From Perkinsus olseni (taxonomy: Eukaryota), in NCBI GenBank assembly GCA_013115125.1, contig JABANN010000381.1:1-33856 (forward strand): DNA of 33,856 bases, read 5' to 3'. Shown piece after piece: positions 13,458-25,700 of this stretch. The notes below the pieces were generated by a model. That model did no database searches. It worked only from the letters and a program-made list of their open reading frames with translations, and had not been told where the DNA came from. Position 1 is the stretch's first letter. The number at the start of each line of letters is the position of its first letter. Position numbers and translations under genes: made by a program.

Positions 13458-13553
13458 GCCCAGGTCTCATGCAGTCGGGATAAGATTTATGCGATAAACT
13501 TAAGAGGTAGGTGTTTCAAGGAAGCATATTCGAAAACCCAACAGTAAAACAGC

Positions 13554-15515
13554 TCATTCTACGGTCAGCTTCTTGCCGGATCGGCACGACGCTTGAACCT
13601 TCAGGGGAACGGTCCACATCGACACGGACAGCGCTTCCGACTGAAAAAACAGCAGGCACTTCGATTAATGAGATTCTAGTAAGACGAGGAGCCCAGGGGC
13701 CCAACTCACGATATCTCGCAGGACTGAAATGACCATGGACAGCCAAGACAGCAGAGCGAAGGTGGATACAAAAACGAGCAAAAATGGCTCGTGGATTGGA
13801 GGCCGGTTGTCGGGTGACAGGAGGCCGAGGACGCAGTTACCTGAAGATTCAATTCTCTCACTGGATATTAGCGAGAAAAAAATCCACATGCTATTATCAT
13901 GACGGGCACGATACAGGGCCAATGAGAGGGTGCGAGGTCGCCGTCGCACACATGAGCCACCTGAAGGGAAAATTTGTCGCTGTAGCAGTGTTAAAAGAGC
14001 GTCACAAAAGCTTTCGAAATTTGGACCGAGTGATACAATTCCACATGTTTGGCAGCCCTGCGCGAGCGTTTCCAGACCACGCAACTGTGCGGTAGGTCGA
14101 AGCCGTAGACGAATCATGGATAGTCTCGCAGCGATCACACGTCTCGGTTGGATTACCTGTATCATCGCTACTGTATAAGAGAATAGGATACCAATGAACC
14201 ATATGGTGAGCCTGGGGTGTTGGGCCGCGACACCCTCAGGAGAGAACGTCACCCACAGACAAGCGAGGACCACACCAACACAGTACGGTGCGGCCGTCGA
14301 GAACGCATGATGCAGATCATGAGTTCGAGTATCTGAAAACTTCTAATCAGCACATCATGAACCGGGAAGGCTGGGTCTTCACTCATTCGTTTCTGTTGCG
14401 ACCCGAACCCGAACTTGGTGAGATGACTATACACTCCATAAACGTGGTTCAAGGTGATTAGGATGGCCGAAAATAACATCCTGAGCGCAAAGTGATCCTC
14501 CTCGCCGAGACGATGCGCACGCTCACAGGACGAGGGTTATGTCACAGCGCTGGAAGCTGCCTCCAATGAACGGCAATGTCTCCTTCACATGCCAGAAGGA
14601 GGAGTAGTCGCTCATGAGGGAGCTCAGCAGGTACACAGTGGCTACGACGAAGATCCCCTCGTTGGGACCGTTGATGTATGGTAGAATGAATTCACCTGAT
14701 CGAAGCATTTGAGTTCCACAACTCTACCATGGACGAGCAAACCTCGATAATATTCGTCCCAGGTTGCAAAGAAAAATTGGGTAGAAGTCATGAAGAGCAT
14801 CGCCAAAGTCCTGAGCACGAGAAAGAGGAATTAGTACAAGTGAGTAGTCAACAGGGGGAGTATCGCACTCACCTCAATCCTGCTCCGTACTGGAATAGAG
14901 CAGCTGTCGAGAAGATACTAACCACAACGTTAATGCTGTCACAGCCATGGTCTATCAGGAGGCCGAGGGGACTGGACAGACCGAGCCGACGCGCCTACGG
15001 AGTAGTGTGCGATACGGCACAAAGAATCTAGGGTTAGCACCTGCTTCCCGTCTAAGTTGTCGAAGAACGAGTAAGCGATAACCATGATGCCCGTCAAGGC
15101 CCACACCCAGGCAGGGCAGGGTTCAGTGAGGGAGGGGCAGTACCTAGGGGAGTGAACAGTGCTGGGAGGCTGCGGACTGGCTATTACCAAAAAACGATGA
15201 GATGTGATATAACATTACAAAGAAGTCCACAAAGAGTAAGAACATTAGGATGGACCTGCAGCTTGGTAAAGCGACCTCCTCACTTGGTCATGCCCTACCC
15301 ATTCAGGGACCCATTGTATGATAACTTCACACAGCGGAGATAATACATAGTTGTAAAGCAGGCTGCGATCTTCCCCTACGAATTTAAAGGCCCTCACTTC
15401 CTTCGCATCCTCCGAGCTCAGATACCTAAGAACAGGCCGTAATGGGAGGTTTATCACGCTATTCAACTCACCTGGGGAGGAGGATACTATAAAGAAACCG
15501 CATAGATGGTTTCAT
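13554..15515 (-). CDS. CDP-alcohol phosphotransferase (ethanolamine/choline phosphotransferase, EPT1/CEPT-like), copy A
   Basis: Spliced product: MKPSMRFLYSILLPR-YLSSEDAKEVRAFKFVGEDRSLLYNYVLSPLC...HPNVLTLCG...[26 protein letters not shown] (complete DxxDGxxARx8Gx3Dx3D motif)...WDEYYRG...NGPNEG...GKKLTVE*. About 12 short introns. Alternative start at 15503. Confidence 0.92.
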
Positions 15516-15519
15516 CTGG

Positions 15520-17100: not shown

Positions 17101-17317
17101 TTCCTCACTTAGAAGCAAACTGAAACAATCCCTTAGAGACGGTTCGTGGTGTCCTATGAGCAGCTGTGAACATGTGTCAACCCTACCTGGCTCTTCAGTG
17201 ACGCGACGGCGATTTCTGCGCAATTATTGCTGTACAACTCGGAGGCGTAGAACGTACGAACTCAAGGGCAGATGATTTTTGAAAAGAGTTTAAAAAAAAA
17301 TCGAACAGTAGAACAAG

Positions 17318-19370
17318 TCAGTCAATGGCACGCTTCTTGCCGGATCGGCACGACGCTTGAATCTTTAGAGGAACAGTCCACATCGACACGGACAGCGCTT
17401 CCGACTGAAAAAGACAACAGCCACAACGTCATGGAATGGCATTTGAGTGGACGAAGCGCTGAGGGGCCCAACTCACGATATCTCGCAGGACTGCAATGAC
17501 CATGGACAGCCAAGACAGCAGTGCGAAGGTGGATACAAACATGAGCAACAACGGCTCGTGAATTGGAGGCTGGTTGTCGGGTGACAGGAGGCCGAGGACG
17601 CAATTACCTGACGAGACAATTTCCTCGCAGGGAATGGGCGAGAAATGGTACATGATATTATGCAGACGGGAAGGATACAGGGCCATCGATAGGGCGTGAG
17701 GTCGCTATCACATACATGAGCCACCTGAAGAGATAGTTGGCTGCTCTCACTGGGTTCAAAGAACGTATTAAAAGCCCTCTAGATATGATACGATGGCCCG
17801 CCGTCGGCGGGTCATCAGATTTAGCTTGTTCAAAAGCCCGGCAAGAGCCTTCCCAAACCACGTAAAGTTAAAACTCGGCAAAGATTAACGGGATGTTGAA
17901 CATCGGATGTTCTCGCAGCCATCACACGTCTCGGTTGGATTACCTGTATCATCGCTACTGTATAAGAGAATAGGATACCGATGAACCATATGGTGAGCCT
18001 GGGGTGTTGGGCCGCGACTCCCTCAGGAGGGAACGTCACCCATAGACAAGCGAGAATCACACCAACACAGTACGGTGCGGCCGTCGAGAACGCATGATGC
18101 AGATCATGAGTTCGAGTATCTGAAAACTTGGAGTCCGCCGACCGGGACCCGGAAAATCCCCGCCCCTTTCCATAACGAGGAAGAGAGTTCTCACTCATTC
18201 GCTTCCGCTGCTCAGGAGGCGTGGTGAGGTAACTGTACACCCCATAAACGTGCGTTAAAATGACTGGAATGGCCGAGGTGGAACACCTGAGCTCAGTGTC
18301 GAGCCCAAGGCAAGACGATGCGCACGCCTACAGGACGAGGGCTATGTCACAGCGCTGGAAGCTGCCTCCAATGAACGGCAATGTCTCCTTCACATGCCAG
18401 AAGGAGGAGTAGTCGCCCATGAGGGAGCTCAGCAGGTATATAGTGGCTAGGATGAGGACACCTTCATTGGGACCGTTGACGTATGGTAGAATAAATTCAC
18501 CTAATCGTCATCGAGACAGCGTTCAAGTTGGTATAATGGGGTAGCCTACCTCGATAATATTCATCCCAAGCAGCAAAGAAGAACTGACTAGAGGCCATGA
18601 AGAGCATAGTCAGAGTTCTAAAGAGGAAGAGTAAATACTGACGTGGGAAACGCACCCCAGTGAATAGTTGACGACATGTAGTTCGTCGATCGCGCGCCGT
18701 AGCCAGCGTCCTCATCACTCACCTCAATCCTGCTCCGTACTGGAACAGAGCGGCTGCAGAGAAGGTACTCATCACTACGTTAATTCCGTCACAGCCATGG
18801 TCTACTAGGAGCCCGAGGGCACTTGAGAGACCGAGCCGACGCGCCTGCAGGGAACTGGTGGGTGCAAGGCGAAGAAGGGAATCTGGGGTGGGTACCTGCT
18901 TCCCGTCTAAATTGTCGAAAAGTTGGTACGCCAGGACCATGATGCCCGTCAAGGCCCACACCCAGGCAGGGCAGGGTTCAGTGAGGGAGGGGCAGTACCT
19001 AGGGGAGTGAACAGTGCTGAGAGGCTGCGGACTGGCTATTACCAAAAAACGATGAGATGTGATATAACATTACAAAGAAGTCCACAAAGAGTAAGAACAT
19101 TAGGATGGACCTGCAGCTTGGTAAAGCGACCTCCTCACTTGGTCATGCCCTACCCATTCAGGGACCCATTGTGTGATAACTTCACACAGCGGAGATAATA
19201 CATAGTTGTAAAGCAGGCTGCGATCTTCCCCTACGAATTTGAAGGCCCTCACTTCCTTTGCATCCTCCGAGCTCAGATACCTAAGAGCAGGCCGTGATGG
19301 GAAGTTTATTACCCTATTCAACTCACCTGGGGAGGAGGATACTATAAAGAATTTGCATAGATGGTTTCAT
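17318..19370 (-). CDS. CDP-alcohol phosphotransferase (EPT1/CEPT-like), copy B
   Basis: Same exon structure as copy A. Contains [31 protein letters not shown] and ends SEALSVSMWTVPLKIQASCRSGKKRAID*. Confidence 0.92.
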
Positions 19371-20157
19371 CTGGCGACTTGTGAGGTGTTAAAGCGCCCA
19401 ACGCAGATGCGCAGCGTCACGCGCCACGAAATTCAGTTCAGTCTCTATTACGCCTTAGTATGCCGCGCCAGAATACGCCTACTTAGTAACTCCTATTTCC
19501 ACAGCTCGCGTGTAGAGAAGATTATTTCCGATGAGACTTGTCATTGGTATAACCCGTTTCGCGAGCATGCCCGGAATGCCTGTAATTTCGGCGAAATGCG
19601 GTATTCAATTTCGCGGTAGTTGGGCCAGTTTATTTGTTTCGCCATTTACTCGGCTACGCGACACCCACCAGCCGCGCTGCTGTCTCAACTCACTAATATC
19701 CTCGGCTCCCGGCGTAAAGGCCGCACCCTAGGCCTTATACACTTCTCGCTACTCCCTTGGTCGTGAATTTGAGGGCCTTACCCGCGGGATTGAACTCCGT
19801 ATTCGAGGCCTGCCGCTGAAATGACTTCTCTATTCGCCAACTTAACGTCCTCATTTCGGCCCTGTCTTTACTCGCTAAAGTGACGATATCCTCGCCTACT
19901 GGCATAGCGACCTCTAGGCGTCTCTCAACGCTTCAGCCCACAGCAAGCACAGAGTAGTGCCTGGTCGCAGGTTCTGTCACGTATGAAGGTCAAGCAGCAG
20001 TTAGTTGAGTCAGCTTCTCAGCCGGTTATGTGTAGAACTCAGTAGGTAGCGGGTGTAACCTTGAGCTCTGTCAACGCGAGCTCTAGGCCTAGTACGCCTC
20101 TTAACAGGCTGGGTTGTGGTGCACTTGGCCACGTTCAGTTGTTTCGTCCCGTCCCCG

Positions 20158-21834
20158 ATGTCTCAGCTTGATTTCCTGAGGGCACTGCGTGCGGAAGAGG
20201 AAGAGGATGCTCAGGAAGACGGCGAGAGGCCCACTGGGGACGTATCTCCCTTAACGTCCGAGGGCGACCCTGTGTCTGAGCCGTCTGAAGGCGCAGCTGC
20301 CAGTAAAGGAGGCTGGGGTGACATACTCGCTGCACAACAGGTAGTAAAGTAAAGGAAGCTGTGAGAGGATTCGGGATATCCTTCGCTGTGCGAAGGAACC
20401 GAGTGTACTCTTGTAGCTCTCATAGAGCTACTTGAGGTTGATGATACTCGATGTGGAGTGGAGGGTGTCCCGGAACTTCTCATCCAATTTGGAAGCAATT
20501 TTCCGGTCGGTAGGTGAGGGTTTTATGACGATACTTTGAGGAGACCTCGAAAAGTGCTTCAGAAATACATTGTTCGAGCTCCTAAAATTTTATAGGAAGT
20601 CAAAAGCTCGACGTTTAGGTCACACTTTTTCACATCAACCATTTAGCAACCCAACGAGTATGTCGAAAAAAGAGAGAAAAACTTCTCATAACGCGTTCTC
20701 GCGTTTTAACTCGTTCTAACTCGTAACGTGAATGGCCGACCTTCATAGAACTGATTTTTTGTTCAACGATGGTAATTGTCGCTGTGAACTGATTAAGATC
20801 GTGAGCATCTCCTTATTCCGTGTAATATCGCACCGGCGGAAGCTCTGGCACCTTCTGGCTGAGTTTGCTTCTGGATTTGTGTGTTTTGTGGATTACGGAG
20901 ATCATAATTTTCCTGTGTCCAGGACACGGCGTCAGCTAGCAGTGGGCAGCCTGGGGGAAGTGGTGGTGGTTGGGGATCTATCTTGGGAGGCGGAGCGAAG
21001 CGCAAGGCAGACGAAACCTGGGCTGAGCCTGCTTCAAAGACTGTCAAGACTGGAGATGGTACTGCGAGACACTCGGACTGCTCGCTGTTGACTCTCCGGT
21101 TTCAGAGAGCACCACGGCCGAGTTCCCCGAGGCAGCCCATATAAAGATCCTCTTCTACGCTTCTGAGGGAGTTGAGGTATCAGCAGAAGACGTTCACAAT
21201 TACAAGACGTCTCTGAAGACCACAGATAAGGGGTCAGAAGAGGAGTTGCTACGGGGTGCCGTACTTGGACTTGCAGGTCCGCTGCCGCACAGGAAGCTTC
21301 GACCGGTGGACCTCCGCGAGCGTTCGGGCTGTCAGGTGGGTCGCCTGGCTGTTGGATTCGCGGATGTTGTGGTATGGCAGATGAGCATGGGGAGAACGAA
21401 GCAGTTGGTGTGGCGAGCATTCCTAAGGAGGAATTTAAAGAAGTTCTGGATAAGTTGGTATGGTCGATGGACACAGACACGGAGCCCCTATGGCGGAGGG
21501 CCCATCCCAACGAGGTCGGCTGCTTCTACTCCTATTAGCGCTCCAACTTCTCGCTGTGGTTCAGCTGAGCGCATATTTCAACTACGGTCTGAATGAGCAG
21601 CTCTTTCGAGAGTACATGCTGGATAAGCAGATTTGCCTGCGGTTGGATCGGGCGAAGCGGAACAAGATTACTGTAATTTTGTGAAGTGCCAGAGTCGACC
21701 TCAAGATTCTCTCGATACAGGTCGGGACGTATCCAGCTCAAGGGAATCTAGGCATCATGAACGCTGCACCGGGAGGAGGGCCGGGTCGGGCTTTGCCTGG
21801 TAATAATACCGTCGGGTACCACCGAGGTACTTAG
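20158..21834 (+). CDS. FIP1: Pre-mRNA 3'-end processing factor FIP1-like protein (may continue into the RRM exons to 22777)
   Basis: Acidic N-terminus MSQLDFLRALRAEEEEDAQEDG. Removing intron 21515-21564 gives PLWRRAHPNE-LSAYFNYGLNEQLFREYMLDKQICLRL, matching the Fip1 motif (PWRxPGADLSDYFNYGFNExTWxxY). Intron 1 is long (20341-20922). Confidence 0.85.
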
Positions 21835-22122
21835 CATACTCCTACCGTACCGAACATGCAGCATTTTGAGTAACGTGGATTACCACTACCAGCGAAAGCA
21901 GTCTAGCTCTTTTCCGTTCGTTTGACGTCACCACTGAGTTCTGGTATGTTGAAACCAGGCTACGATTGGTAGCCTACGAAGCGAGCGCTTCGCTTGGACT
22001 TTTCCCGTGAATTGACTGCTGAATTATGGTACGTTGAAATGAGCATAGATTCCGTCGTCGTGACAGAGCCAGCATAGATGATGATTGATTTATGTATCAT
22101 CGTGATGGCGGGCGATGTTCAG

Positions 22123-22777
22123 GTGGTCCTGGCCAGAGGCACGTGAATCCGAGGGACATGGAGGACATGCCAGGTAGGGTACGGACGATACACGTATGTT
22201 GAGAAGAAGTCCCTCAGGCGCCAATGACCCCAAACGATCGTTGTATGTCTGTGGGTTCCCTGCGGAATGGGGCGAGCAGGAGCTACATGACTTGTTCGTC
22301 AAATTCGGTAATAGAAGTTTGCTGCTGTGGGGTCCACGCACTGCTGTATGGCCAGGGCAATTGGAAAGTGTTGTTATTATGCCTAACAGAGTTGGGCACT
22401 CGAGAGGTGCTGGCTTCGTGAACTACGATGACAATGTTCTCAGTCAGCAGGTAATTTCGTGGCGCAGTGACAAGATTACAGTGGGAGTATCTTTAGGTCG
22501 TCCTGGCCATGAATGGGTATTGTGTACCAGACAGGCCTGACTGTACTCTAGCCGTCCGATTTGCGAAAGCCAAGACGCAGCAGCTGCCCGCGGGAGCTCG
22601 GGAACGAGACTCTCATCGTGGAGGGAGTTGGGGTAAAGGAAAAGGCAAGGGGGATGGTCATGTAGGTAGCTTTTGTGTGGAGGTCGAGTGTACGGTCGTT
22701 GTCTGCAGTACGGCCGAGGCAAAGGCAAAGGGAAGGGTTGGGAGAGCAGAGGGAAGGGAGGAGGCTTTTATCACTGA
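22123..22777 (+). CDS. RRM-domain exons with a Gly/Lys-rich tail (ELAV/CELF-type RRM); C-terminus of FIP1, or a separate gene from ATG 22092
   Basis: Spliced: SLYVCGFP (RNP2) AEWGEQELHDLFVKFG-QLESVVIMPNRVGHSRGAGFVNY (RNP1) DDNVLSQQ-VVLAMNGY...TLAVRFAK...GKGKGKGDGH-YGRGKGKGKG...FYH*. Confidence 0.88.
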
Positions 22778-22799: not shown

Positions 22800-25700
22800 C
22801 TCGAGTGTTGTGTGACAGTCGGTCGAGAGTGATAGCTAGAGGTGTCAGAAAGTAGCCCATCCGACCAGGACACCCGATCCCCTTGAAAAGGTACACAGAA
22901 ACTAATAATTATAATAGCCAATCTAAGATAAGCTTGCCCATGGTAGCGGCACAAAGACCGCTCAGGACAACTAGAGAATACACCCCACCACAAATTGTTA
23001 GCATATCCGCTTTTTCGACTTGTGCGCTGTCACCTGGACGAGTACGGTACTCGAAGAGCGTCTTTCAGAGAGCCATCTCTCCATGTTTCATCCCAAAAGC
23101 CTTATGATAAGAACATACCTCCCTGAGTTGCAGTAGAGAATGTGCGGACACAGACTAACTGCTGATCCCTAAAAACCGGAGGAGAATCTTCTCTTCCTGA
23201 TGAGAGCACAGGGGCACTGATCGCCTAGCACCGGTGGCGATGTGGAAACTAGAACACAAGAGAGCACTGATAAGTCCGTACAGTCGGTATGGCTGAGACC
23301 AATCCTGTGAGGTCATGTGTAATGTACTGCGCAATGGTACAGTAATGGTAGTAGGAGTTTTATGGTACTACCCCCTTGGGGGAGTCTCAATTCGAGGAGG
23401 GGGTCTCCAATAGGAGTAGTTGCCACACCCACTGAGGCTGCGTCGATGTAGACCGTGCTGGGTTCTCGGGCACCCCAGTGTTGGTCCGGCACTGCGCGAA
23501 CGATCAGAGCTAGCGGCGAAGTCCCGGCTGGCTGGTCGGCTAATGATGGCAAGCAGTGGGCACTGGGGAAGAGCGGCAGTGGGACTTACCCACGGTCGGG
23601 TAGGTAGTCTGTGGACATGATCCGGATGAACTGGTTGTCCCGCAAGGAGGATGAAGACGGGCGACTGAGCTGCTCGCGCTTCTGCTTGGCGGCTCGTTTG
23701 GTGAGGTATCGAGGAGAACTCGACGGCCGCTGTGCTTGCTGCGGGGAGGCCTCGGCGGAATCTACGAGAAGTGTCCCTCTGACTGCATAGGGAAGGTCAC
23801 CTTGCTGATCACAGGGCTGACCATCCACGAGTTCTGGCGGGCTTCCCTTTGGGAGTTCCTCTAGTGACAATAGAGCGGTGCATTGCTGTTTAGAATTGAC
23901 AAAACCTTCGCCGTCCAGAATGGGCTCCCACACTCGGGACTCGTCACCGTCTTCATTCCTTCCCTGAGGAGCGATGGAGGAGGGCCGAGAGTGGCTTGGC
24001 TCCGACCTGCCCTTCCGTGCCGTCGCTTCCAGCAGGTGACGGTAAGCAGTCCAGAATGTCAAGATTGACGACCTGTGTGGACCTTCTCTTTGCTCTCATG
24101 AAGGCGAGTAGCCCTACCTTAGTGATGGACTGGTTCTCAGCCGCCCAGTCGCCGCGACTGATGATGGCGTCTAAGTCGGGGCTCTCAGCGGCCCATTCTC
24201 TCCGGAGACTCTCCAGTAGACTCTGAGGGATCTAACCAAGCCATGCAGCCTGTTGTTACCGAGAGACGCACGAACCTTGGCGTCGAGCAGCAAGGCGTGA
24301 CGAATGATGATCTCGGGATCGAAGCCTCGACACATCATCGAAGGTCTTCTCGTCAGGGGAGCCCTCCAGGGGACGGGAGGGGATATGTCGCATAGAGCAG
24401 AGCCCCAGCCGGATGATCCAAGCGTGTACTTATGAATCTGAAGGCAAAGGTCAACACTGAGACAGCCTCTGAACACAATTGTGATGGGAGTCCATACAAA
24501 TAGTGGAGAGGCTGCGAAGAGTGTTCAACAAGTTCCAATTTCGGAAGGCACTTTTTCACGCCCCCAGCGGCTGTGGAGGTTCACACGGCGAATATCGAAG
24601 CGGAACTCGAGCAATACACTCTCGAGACACGCATCGAGCTAGGTTGGAAATATCGAGCGCTCGCGAGATGCCTTTCAAAATTAGATGAGAAGCAAATGGG
24701 ACACCCTTGACGGTGGAAATAAGACCGCTTGTTCACCTGCAAGAGTTTCTTCTTGCGAGTCGTGGCTGGAGGAGAGTAGCTGCCACGGTACTCGTCGAAG
24801 CTGTCGTGACCACCGGCAGAGTGAGACGAGGTACCACCGATGTCGTTGAGGACCTGAGGGGGCCTGTGAGAAGAGAAGTAGTCGCAGCTCGTGCCTGATG
24901 AAGTCCGGCAAAGGTCTTCTCCTTAAGGAACCTCTTAGACGAAAGGGACATGATAGCCAACGATAGCAGCAACAGACTCCTGGGGAAGCCCAAGTGCGGC
25001 GGCAAGGGCGGACAAGAGGCGAAGAGGAAGTCCCACAGCCGGAGGACCTGCCATTGATCGTGATGCCGGTACGACCAGCGTGTCGTCGGGTTACAGTGGA
25101 GAGAGGGAGGCTGTAGGCAAACAGGGTCATGAACCACTTGGTGGCGTACATGTCTGTGACGTCAATGAAGATGCCCTCGGCCTCGCTGATGCTTCGGAAG
25201 TGACTGAGTGGCTGTCGTGCAGAGCGGCCCAGCGGACGGTGAGCTGACTTGTCCAAGTGGGGCAGCTGCGTTTCTAGTAGTCGGGTGAATGTGAACTTGA
25301 GTAGGGACAGTAGTGCCTTGTCCACAGTGAAGAGGGGTGCTAGGTTGTGTCTATGCATGAGGAGACAGAGCAGCCAGAAAGTGTCATCCTGAGTGGGGGG
25401 AGGGTGGTAGCTTCGAAAGGAAGGTCCATGGGCACCTCAGAATGAGTCACTTGAAGCAGCATGCCACTGACGAAGTTCATGCCTTGGCAGTAGCCCAAGT
25501 AAGAGTTACTCGCCGCGAAGGTGTATATAACCCGACCAAGACTGAGGGGAAGAGTTGCTGAGCGTGCGGTAGGGCGATGGTTACGCGTCCAGGTTGCTGT
25601 CTTTATTGAAGTAGTCTGAGCCCGGAAATGTCCGACGGAGGTCCCGATGCAACTCAGCGGCTATGGACGGGTACCTGAGATGTTCCGTCACTCGCCACGA

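Follow-up and report, generated by a model that had tools for sequence, protein, structure and literature searches.

The stretch of Perkinsus olseni DNA analysed here, hereafter the window, spans 33,856 nucleotides (contig JABANN010000381.1). Perkinsus is a shellfish parasite. At 20158-22777 on the + strand, the window carries a gene whose 12-exon model encodes 431 amino acids with no internal stops. The predicted protein has, in order, an acidic N-terminus, a divergent motif of Fip1 (normally an unstructured scaffold within the machinery that adds mRNA tails), a Gly/Pro linker, one RRM, and a Gly/Lys tail. The exons carrying the Fip1 motif match Pfam PF05182 at 26 bits (cut-off 22.7, single open frame), and the RRM exons, in tandem with them on the + strand, match PF00076 at 26.9 bits (one open reading frame). 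The features of the gene are as follows.

20137-20138, + strand: trans-splice acceptor AG, followed by a 19-nt 5′ UTR at 20139-20157 (contig from run X19)
20158-20340, + strand: exon 1, with the ATG, a conserved N-terminal motif, and an acidic run; joined to exon 2 in 3 of 4 runs
20923-21058, + strand: exon 2, Gly/Ser-rich and weakly conserved
21106-21232, + strand: exon 3, containing a conserved block specific to the family at about amino acids 114-147; seen in 4 of 4 runs
21277-21335, + strand: exon 4, 59 nt, both flanking joints in 4 of 4 runs
21381-21514, + strand: exon 5, first part of the conserved Fip1 domain, with the Trp equivalent of human W150
21565-21672, + strand: exon 6, core Fip1 motif YFNYG with the equivalents of human F161 and W170; PF05182
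21721-21799, + strand: exon 7, Gly/Pro linker, ending at the donor in use; 4 of 4 runs
21800-22122, + strand: Fip1-RRM intron, 323 nt, GT..AG, containing an unused donor at 21827, a stop at 21832-21834, and an ATG at 22092
22123-22173, + strand: exon 8, linker; 4 of 4 runs
22218-22307, + strand: exon 9, RRM β1 (RNP2 with Tyr) and α1
22356-22450, + strand: exon 10, RRM β2-β3 (RNP1 with Arg, Ala, and Phe)
22497-22661, + strand: exon 11, end of the RRM and start of the Gly/Lys/Arg tail
22709-22777, + strand: exon 12, encoding a Gly/Lys-rich tail up to the stop TGA; joined in 2 of 4 runs

Several other features lie in the same window. On the minus strand, 13533-15519 and 17297-19374 form a direct duplication of ~2 kb (79.5% identity), head-to-head with the Fip1 gene. 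The translation of the duplicated unit resembles a CDP-alcohol phosphatidyltransferase, and a Pfam search of three single open frames of the unit gave no match. A gene with a Rab-GAP TBC domain (24681-25436, minus strand) is convergent with the Fip1 gene, and an open frame of 171 amino acids at 8240-8755 (minus strand) has imperfect acidic repeats, internal DNA repeats, and no Pfam match. Downstream of the Fip1 gene, ~110 nt past the stop, there is an AAAAG at 22886-22890, a motif that has been reported from the poly(A) sites of dinoflagellates and that, as a 5-mer, is expected by chance.

The exon boundaries are based on assembled contigs from 4 of 24 listed runs, which come from four different studies; one of these runs is recorded as RNA, two are guessed to be RNA, and one is unlabelled. 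A contig is not a single molecule, although the Fip1-RRM junction itself is bridged, and assembled contigs lose rare forms, such that a joint or depth missing from them is weak evidence of absence. All 11 GT..AG joints are found in these contigs: nine in all four runs, that of the first intron in three, and that of the last in two. Contigs of 1260, 1047, and 1040 nt each begin in exon 1 or 2 and reach exon 11 or 12, and contig and model positions agree without extra letters (the end of exon 6 at 760; 22356 at 981). An early model with a single exon at 21106-21276 was rejected, since the RNA contigs split this region into two exons. The GenBank model P0020 contains an extra exon of 84 nt at 20426-20509, which is skipped in three of the four runs and joined in none; it probably reflects a wrong prediction or an infrequent form. 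At the 5′ end, one contig, from run X19 only, carries nine non-genomic letters plus AG that correspond to the last letters of the Perkinsus spliced leader and are absent from the genomic DNA at this position, placing a spliced-leader end 19 nt upstream of the ATG at 20158. The Perkinsus spliced leader is reported to be 22 nt long (PMC9399869).

The junction between the two halves of the protein is bridged in all four runs, by one contig each, through a joint (21798>22122) that skips 323 nt and has 49, 49, 49, and 30 nt on its shorter side. A preliminary description of this DNA had proposed, from the letters alone, that the Fip1 exons are spliced to the RRM exons, and the RNA-derived contigs bear this out, together with the proposed acceptor, as the RRM-side exon starts at 22123. 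The donor named there, 21826|21827 (GT at 21827), has no joint in any of the four runs. The donor in use, 21799|21800, lies 27 nt upstream and is likewise in phase 1; it is also the donor of those public gene models that extend across the junction. Consequently, the 296-nt intron and the ...YHR-GGPG... junction that had been predicted need to be replaced by an intron of 323 nt at 21800-22122.

The fused architecture is also found in GenBank models from two species, namely P0001, P0004, and P0006 of P. olseni and P0002 of P. chesapeaki; P0020 of P. olseni (KAF4657111.1/KAF4660654.1) is identical to the window model except for the one predicted extra exon. Between the two species, identity is 73/75 in the Fip1 core, 81/85 in the RRM, 55/110 in the N-terminus, and 43/51 in the tail, and the exon-3 block is identical at 33/33 positions. 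The Gly/Lys-rich tail that had been proposed for the protein is thus present in the contigs and in the gene models of both species. Other models are split or truncated: P. olseni P0014 has the RRM only, P0007 ends at a read-through stop on a contig of 577 bp, and P. marinus PMAR019224 ends before the YFNYG exon. The fused models P0001, P0004, P0006, and P0002 all bear the GenBank name “poly(A) binding protein, cytoplasmic 1-like”. A cytoplasmic poly(A)-binding protein shares the possession of RRMs but is reported to have four of them, often with an MLLE domain (PMC12787238), whereas in the Perkinsus protein Pfam finds a single RRM and a Fip1 motif but no MLLE. Therefore, judged by its predicted domains, the name is a misannotation, and the fusion architecture is already in the databases, though misnamed.

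Two alternative readings of the gene structure can be weighed against these data. If the locus held two adjacent genes, the fusion would be an artefact of prediction or assembly. The split models in P. marinus and on some P. olseni contigs agree with such a reading, and so does an unspliced contig of run X1 over 21966-22151, which covers the ATG at 22092. However, X1 probably contains DNA or pre-mRNA, because further unspliced contigs of this run lie upstream and in intron 1. In addition, the intron is removed exactly at GT..AG in all four runs, the only spliced-leader end precedes the ATG at 20158, with none near 22092 where an independent 5′ end had been considered, and three distant single proteins (described below) carry both domains. 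The two-gene reading is largely refuted by the joints, and we find it scarcely credible. The second alternative is that regulated retention of the intron at 21800-22122, or polyadenylation within it, yields a Fip1 of 286 amino acids without the RRM beside the long form. The preliminary description had envisaged two such forms, and the read-through stop it pointed to (TAG, 21832-21834) does exist. Further in favour of a short form, the host intron measures 323 nt while nine of the 11 introns measure 44-50 nt, the GT at 21827 scores 7.75 against 8.0 for the used donor (with a matrix built from the 10 other donors), and the 74-amino-acid P0007 model ends with the read-through. Against it, the bin 21852-21965 has zero depth and the 21826 joint is missing in all four runs (weak evidence, given that contigs lose rare forms), the intron has no AATAAA or ATTAAA, and the 577-bp contig of P0007 is probably too short for the RRM exons. 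The existence of two forms thus finds no support in the contigs, and we regard this reading as quite improbable. Altogether, the P. olseni locus is almost certainly one gene that encodes a fused Fip1-RRM protein.

The identification of the N-terminal half as Fip1 is supported by several comparisons. PF05182 scores the Perkinsus proteins at 25.3-26.1 bits; three environmental proteins with the same architecture score 17.8-19.5, under the cut-off of 22.7. In the P. olseni genome, PF05182 and a canonical Fip1 without an RRM (P0012) each match one locus, the fusion gene, these counts being lower bounds. The best PDB matches of P0005, the Fip1 region with the linker and the first residues of the RRM, are fragments of human FIP1 (E 0.007 and 0.011), and a profile of the family aligned with P0012 gives a probability of 97 and an E value of 7e-11 over 62 columns. 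On this sequence evidence, the fusion gene is the genome's Fip1 orthologue and the only Fip1 detected in a search whose counts are lower bounds.

Human FIP1 is reported to bind CPSF30 through W150, F161, and W170, with a salt bridge from D159 as a supporting contact outside the three mutated residues (PMC9512404). Among the five family sequences aligned, the equivalent of W150 is W in all five, that of F161 is F in four and Y in one, and that of W170 is F in four and L in one, such that the predicted CPSF30-binding patch of Perkinsus reads W, F, F. The equivalent of D159 is lost in 5/5, being Ala or Gln. Upstream of this domain, residues 1-110 contain 11% Glu and 8% Asp, including the acidic run in exon 1, and the exon-3 block is, by its position only, a candidate contact for poly(A) polymerase or CstF.

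The preliminary description had contrasted this protein with a Fip1 that lacks a folded RNA-binding domain, a contrast that holds for animals, yeast, and plants; trypanosome FIP1, however, is listed as a CCCH protein in the source cited (PMC2873481). The cited portion of a survey of Fip1 domains across species lists no RRM (PMC3287031). Toxoplasma Fip1 is reported as a CPSF component and described as a mostly non-structured or FIP1-domain protein (PMC8313237, PMC8354455), one study reports, in the part cited, no clear apicomplexan Fip1 by BLAST (PMC6117058), and the cited sections of a review of dinoflagellate RNA binding do not mention Fip1 (PMC12787238). A Fip1 motif is also reported in a plant cyclophilin (PMC7641896).

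In the RRM of the C-terminal half, the RNP2 Tyr, the RNP1 Arg/Lys, and the RNP1 Phe are kept in all five family sequences, which preserves the aromatics at RNP2-2 and RNP1-5; RNP1 position 3 is non-aromatic, with Ala in 5/5 where Hu RRM2 has Val. In single-domain sequence comparisons, the best scores are to Hu RRM2 (30.5-31.4 bits, E ~1e-6), and the best yeast Pab1 RRM reaches 18.5. The “ELAV/CELF-like” label given earlier therefore agrees with the best per-domain match, but it does not establish orthology, as the resemblance is generic (ELAV, PABP, hnRNP A1, CELF). The structural model of P0010, one of the environmental proteins, has a standard β-α-β-β-α-β RRM with blocks mostly at pLDDT 83-90 and low confidence in the remaining chain, and Foldseek matches this RRM to solved RRMs; an AlphaFold model of P0004 itself, made with three sequences, was poor (pLDDT 33). 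These predicted features support RNA binding without indicating specificity.

To place the fusion among known proteins, 1.84 billion representatives were searched by phmmer with P0005. The six matches were P0001, the environmental proteins P0009, P0010, and P0013, the canonical P0012, and P0011, which was rejected as a repeat-protein artefact. The three environmental proteins are unnamed and carry both Fip1 and a RRM, although the query contained only the start of the latter. Relative to P0004, identity in the Fip1 region is 27/58 for P0009, 27/56 for P0010, and 25/55 for P0013; for the RRM the corresponding values are 36/79, 29/74, and 33/79. Over the two domains this amounts to about 40-48%. 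P0010 and P0013 share the N-terminal motif (9/16 identical over residues 1-16) and match the exon-3 block at 15/34 and 14/33 positions; P0009 appears partial. The Gly/Lys tail, conserved in Perkinsus, is missing in P0010 and P0013 and can therefore be considered accessory. We interpret the three proteins as probable orthologues from distantly related organisms, and the fusion would accordingly be old relative to the genus Perkinsus. As far as these predicted proteins can tell, the Fip1-RRM architecture is one that reaches well beyond P. olseni and P. chesapeaki.

Other searches returned less. Two metagenome scans for the environmental proteins gave 56 and 29 pattern matches, none of them confirmed and no contigs found. 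Word-index searches gave 3, 2, and 10 matches, which were Perkinsus Fip1 proteins, P0009, and generic RRM proteins only; these searches are insensitive, and their silence on dinoflagellates and apicomplexans is no evidence of absence. None of the searches run returned a named Fip1 from either group, and the ESM Atlas leads, at 0.79 (RRM) and 0.78 (Fip1), were both sub-threshold.

We also looked for partners of the protein in the 3′-processing machinery of the genome. PAP_central has 10 matches on five contigs (G000:C959, C848, C2670, C2202, and C1549), which suggests that several putative poly(A) polymerase genes are present. A separate CstF64-like gene with a RRM and a hinge was found (L002, G000:C3111), and a second, weaker hinge match under the cut-off lies at L003 (G000:C2180). 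No CPSF30 was recognised in 56 stretches, some of them overlapping, that were inspected by eye from 122 zf-CCCH and six PF15663 matches; three motif patterns also failed, in a partial inspection of a genome with short exons. Three matches of the last CPSF30 pattern were rejected as being at chance level and not CPSF30-like. Tandem CCCH fingers occur in one frame of 359 amino acids at L025 (G000:C69:24910-25158), a possible CPSF30-like partner that presumably resembles ZC3H3-type proteins. A YTH family search of the genome gave no matches and was uninformative, its controls also giving none.

We consider it reasonably probable that the fused protein is the Fip1 of this lineage's CPSF and that its RRM binds pre-mRNA near the cleavage site. 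In this mechanism, every step of which past the gene structure is drawn from homology, the Fip1 domain would dock on a CPSF30/Yth1-type zinc finger, and the acidic and conserved N-terminal part would recruit poly(A) polymerase. The tethered RRM, aided by the basic tail, would contact single-stranded pre-mRNA close to the point of cleavage. For human FIP1, binding to U-rich RNA through its Arg-rich tail is reported (PMC3287031, PMC9512404); the RRM may be a folded substitute for this unstructured tail and may help define 3′ ends. We count against this mechanism the unrecognised CPSF30, the divergent Fip1 motif with D159 lost, the Ala at RNP1-3, the split models, and the unspliced X1 contig.

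Two other readings keep the fused protein but change its role. It could act in CPSF without its RRM choosing sites, the RRM instead binding the nascent poly(A) tail or a protein (with effects on tail length, processivity, or export) or linking 3′ processing with the trans-splicing of the gene that follows. The Ala at RNP1 position 3 would fit such a role, as would the generic similarity of the RRM and the separate CstF64-like gene, which could already read downstream elements; moreover, the RRM of CFIm68 is reported to bind protein and not RNA (PMC3287031). Since both surface aromatics and the basic residue of RNP1 are nevertheless kept in all five sequences, and Hu RRM2 outscores the best Pab1 RRM, we consider this reading unlikely. 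The protein could also have left the polyadenylation machinery, its degenerate Fip1 motif binding another CCCH protein and its RRM serving another RNA pathway. The divergence of the motif, the loss of D159, and the failure of a partial inspection to find CPSF30 would be consistent with such a departure. However, no second Fip1 was found in the genome, the motif hardly varies from one Perkinsus species to another, and the Fip1 of Toxoplasma is a CPSF component in the reports cited above, which makes this reading very improbable. A bolder version of the site-binding mechanism holds that the fused RRM is the main poly(A)-signal reader in Perkinsus and related lineages, replacing the reading of AAUAAA by the CPSF30 zinc fingers and WDR33, with CPSF30 reduced or highly diverged. 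We consider this version unlikely; if true, poly(A)-site recognition would come in a third design, in addition to the reading of AAUAAA and the m6A/YTH reading in apicomplexans, with possible relevance to the dinoflagellate lineage, for which one study reports the poly(A) signal as unclear and non-canonical, with AAAAG/C at the site (PMC2488372).

The analysis yields a corrected splice site and an expressed, conserved fusion that is undescribed in the searched literature. Within that literature, which left outside most subscription papers and all supplements, including the domain tables of genome papers, we found no description of a Fip1-RRM fusion or of a Perkinsus Fip1, and the cited parts of PMC9912109, PMC5029490, and PMC2868825 do not describe the fusion. 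The surprise is limited, given that RNA binding is already a property of human FIP1 and that fusions of RNA readers to CPSF subunits are known from other protists. A core factor that is present in single copy and carries an RRM of its own would offer a concrete handle on 3′-end definition in Perkinsus and its dinoflagellate relatives: the binding motif of the RRM could be compared with mapped poly(A) sites, making it a testable candidate for mRNA end choice. In addition, our reading corrects the PABPC1-like name that conceals the Perkinsus Fip1.

Compared with Fip1/FIP1L1 of human and yeast, the Perkinsus protein has the same acidic N-terminus, central W...YFNYG domain with a hydrophobic patch, low-complexity Gly/Pro region behind the conserved domain, and basic C-terminal tail. 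It differs in having a folded RRM after the linker and no RE/D repeats, in the divergence of its domain (D159 lost; W170 replaced by F or L across the family), and in a tail of Gly/Lys, whereas that of human FIP1 is Arg-rich. The RRMs of ELAV/Hu, Sex-lethal, and CELF share the fold and include its best per-domain matches (Hu RRM2), but ELAV and CELF proteins have two or three RRMs (tandem RRM1-2 plus RRM3) where the Perkinsus protein has one, and the similarity is too low for a claim of orthology or AU-rich specificity. CstF64/Rna15 combines an N-terminal RRM with the hinge PF14327, to which the fusion protein has no match. The closest precedents for the architecture come from other protists and plants. 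In trypanosomes, which also trans-splice, FIP1 is reported to carry an added folded module of potential RNA binding (PMC2873481), although this module is a CCCH finger and not a RRM, and the lineage is unrelated. In the CPSF30-YTH proteins of apicomplexans and plants, a core subunit of CPSF is fused with an RNA-reading domain, likewise among alveolates, and the fusion is reported to guide 3′ ends in Toxoplasma (PMC8313237). There, however, the subunit is a different one, the domain is an m6A reader, and Fip1 itself is described as mostly non-structured (PMC8313237), whereas in Perkinsus it is Fip1 that carries the folded domain.
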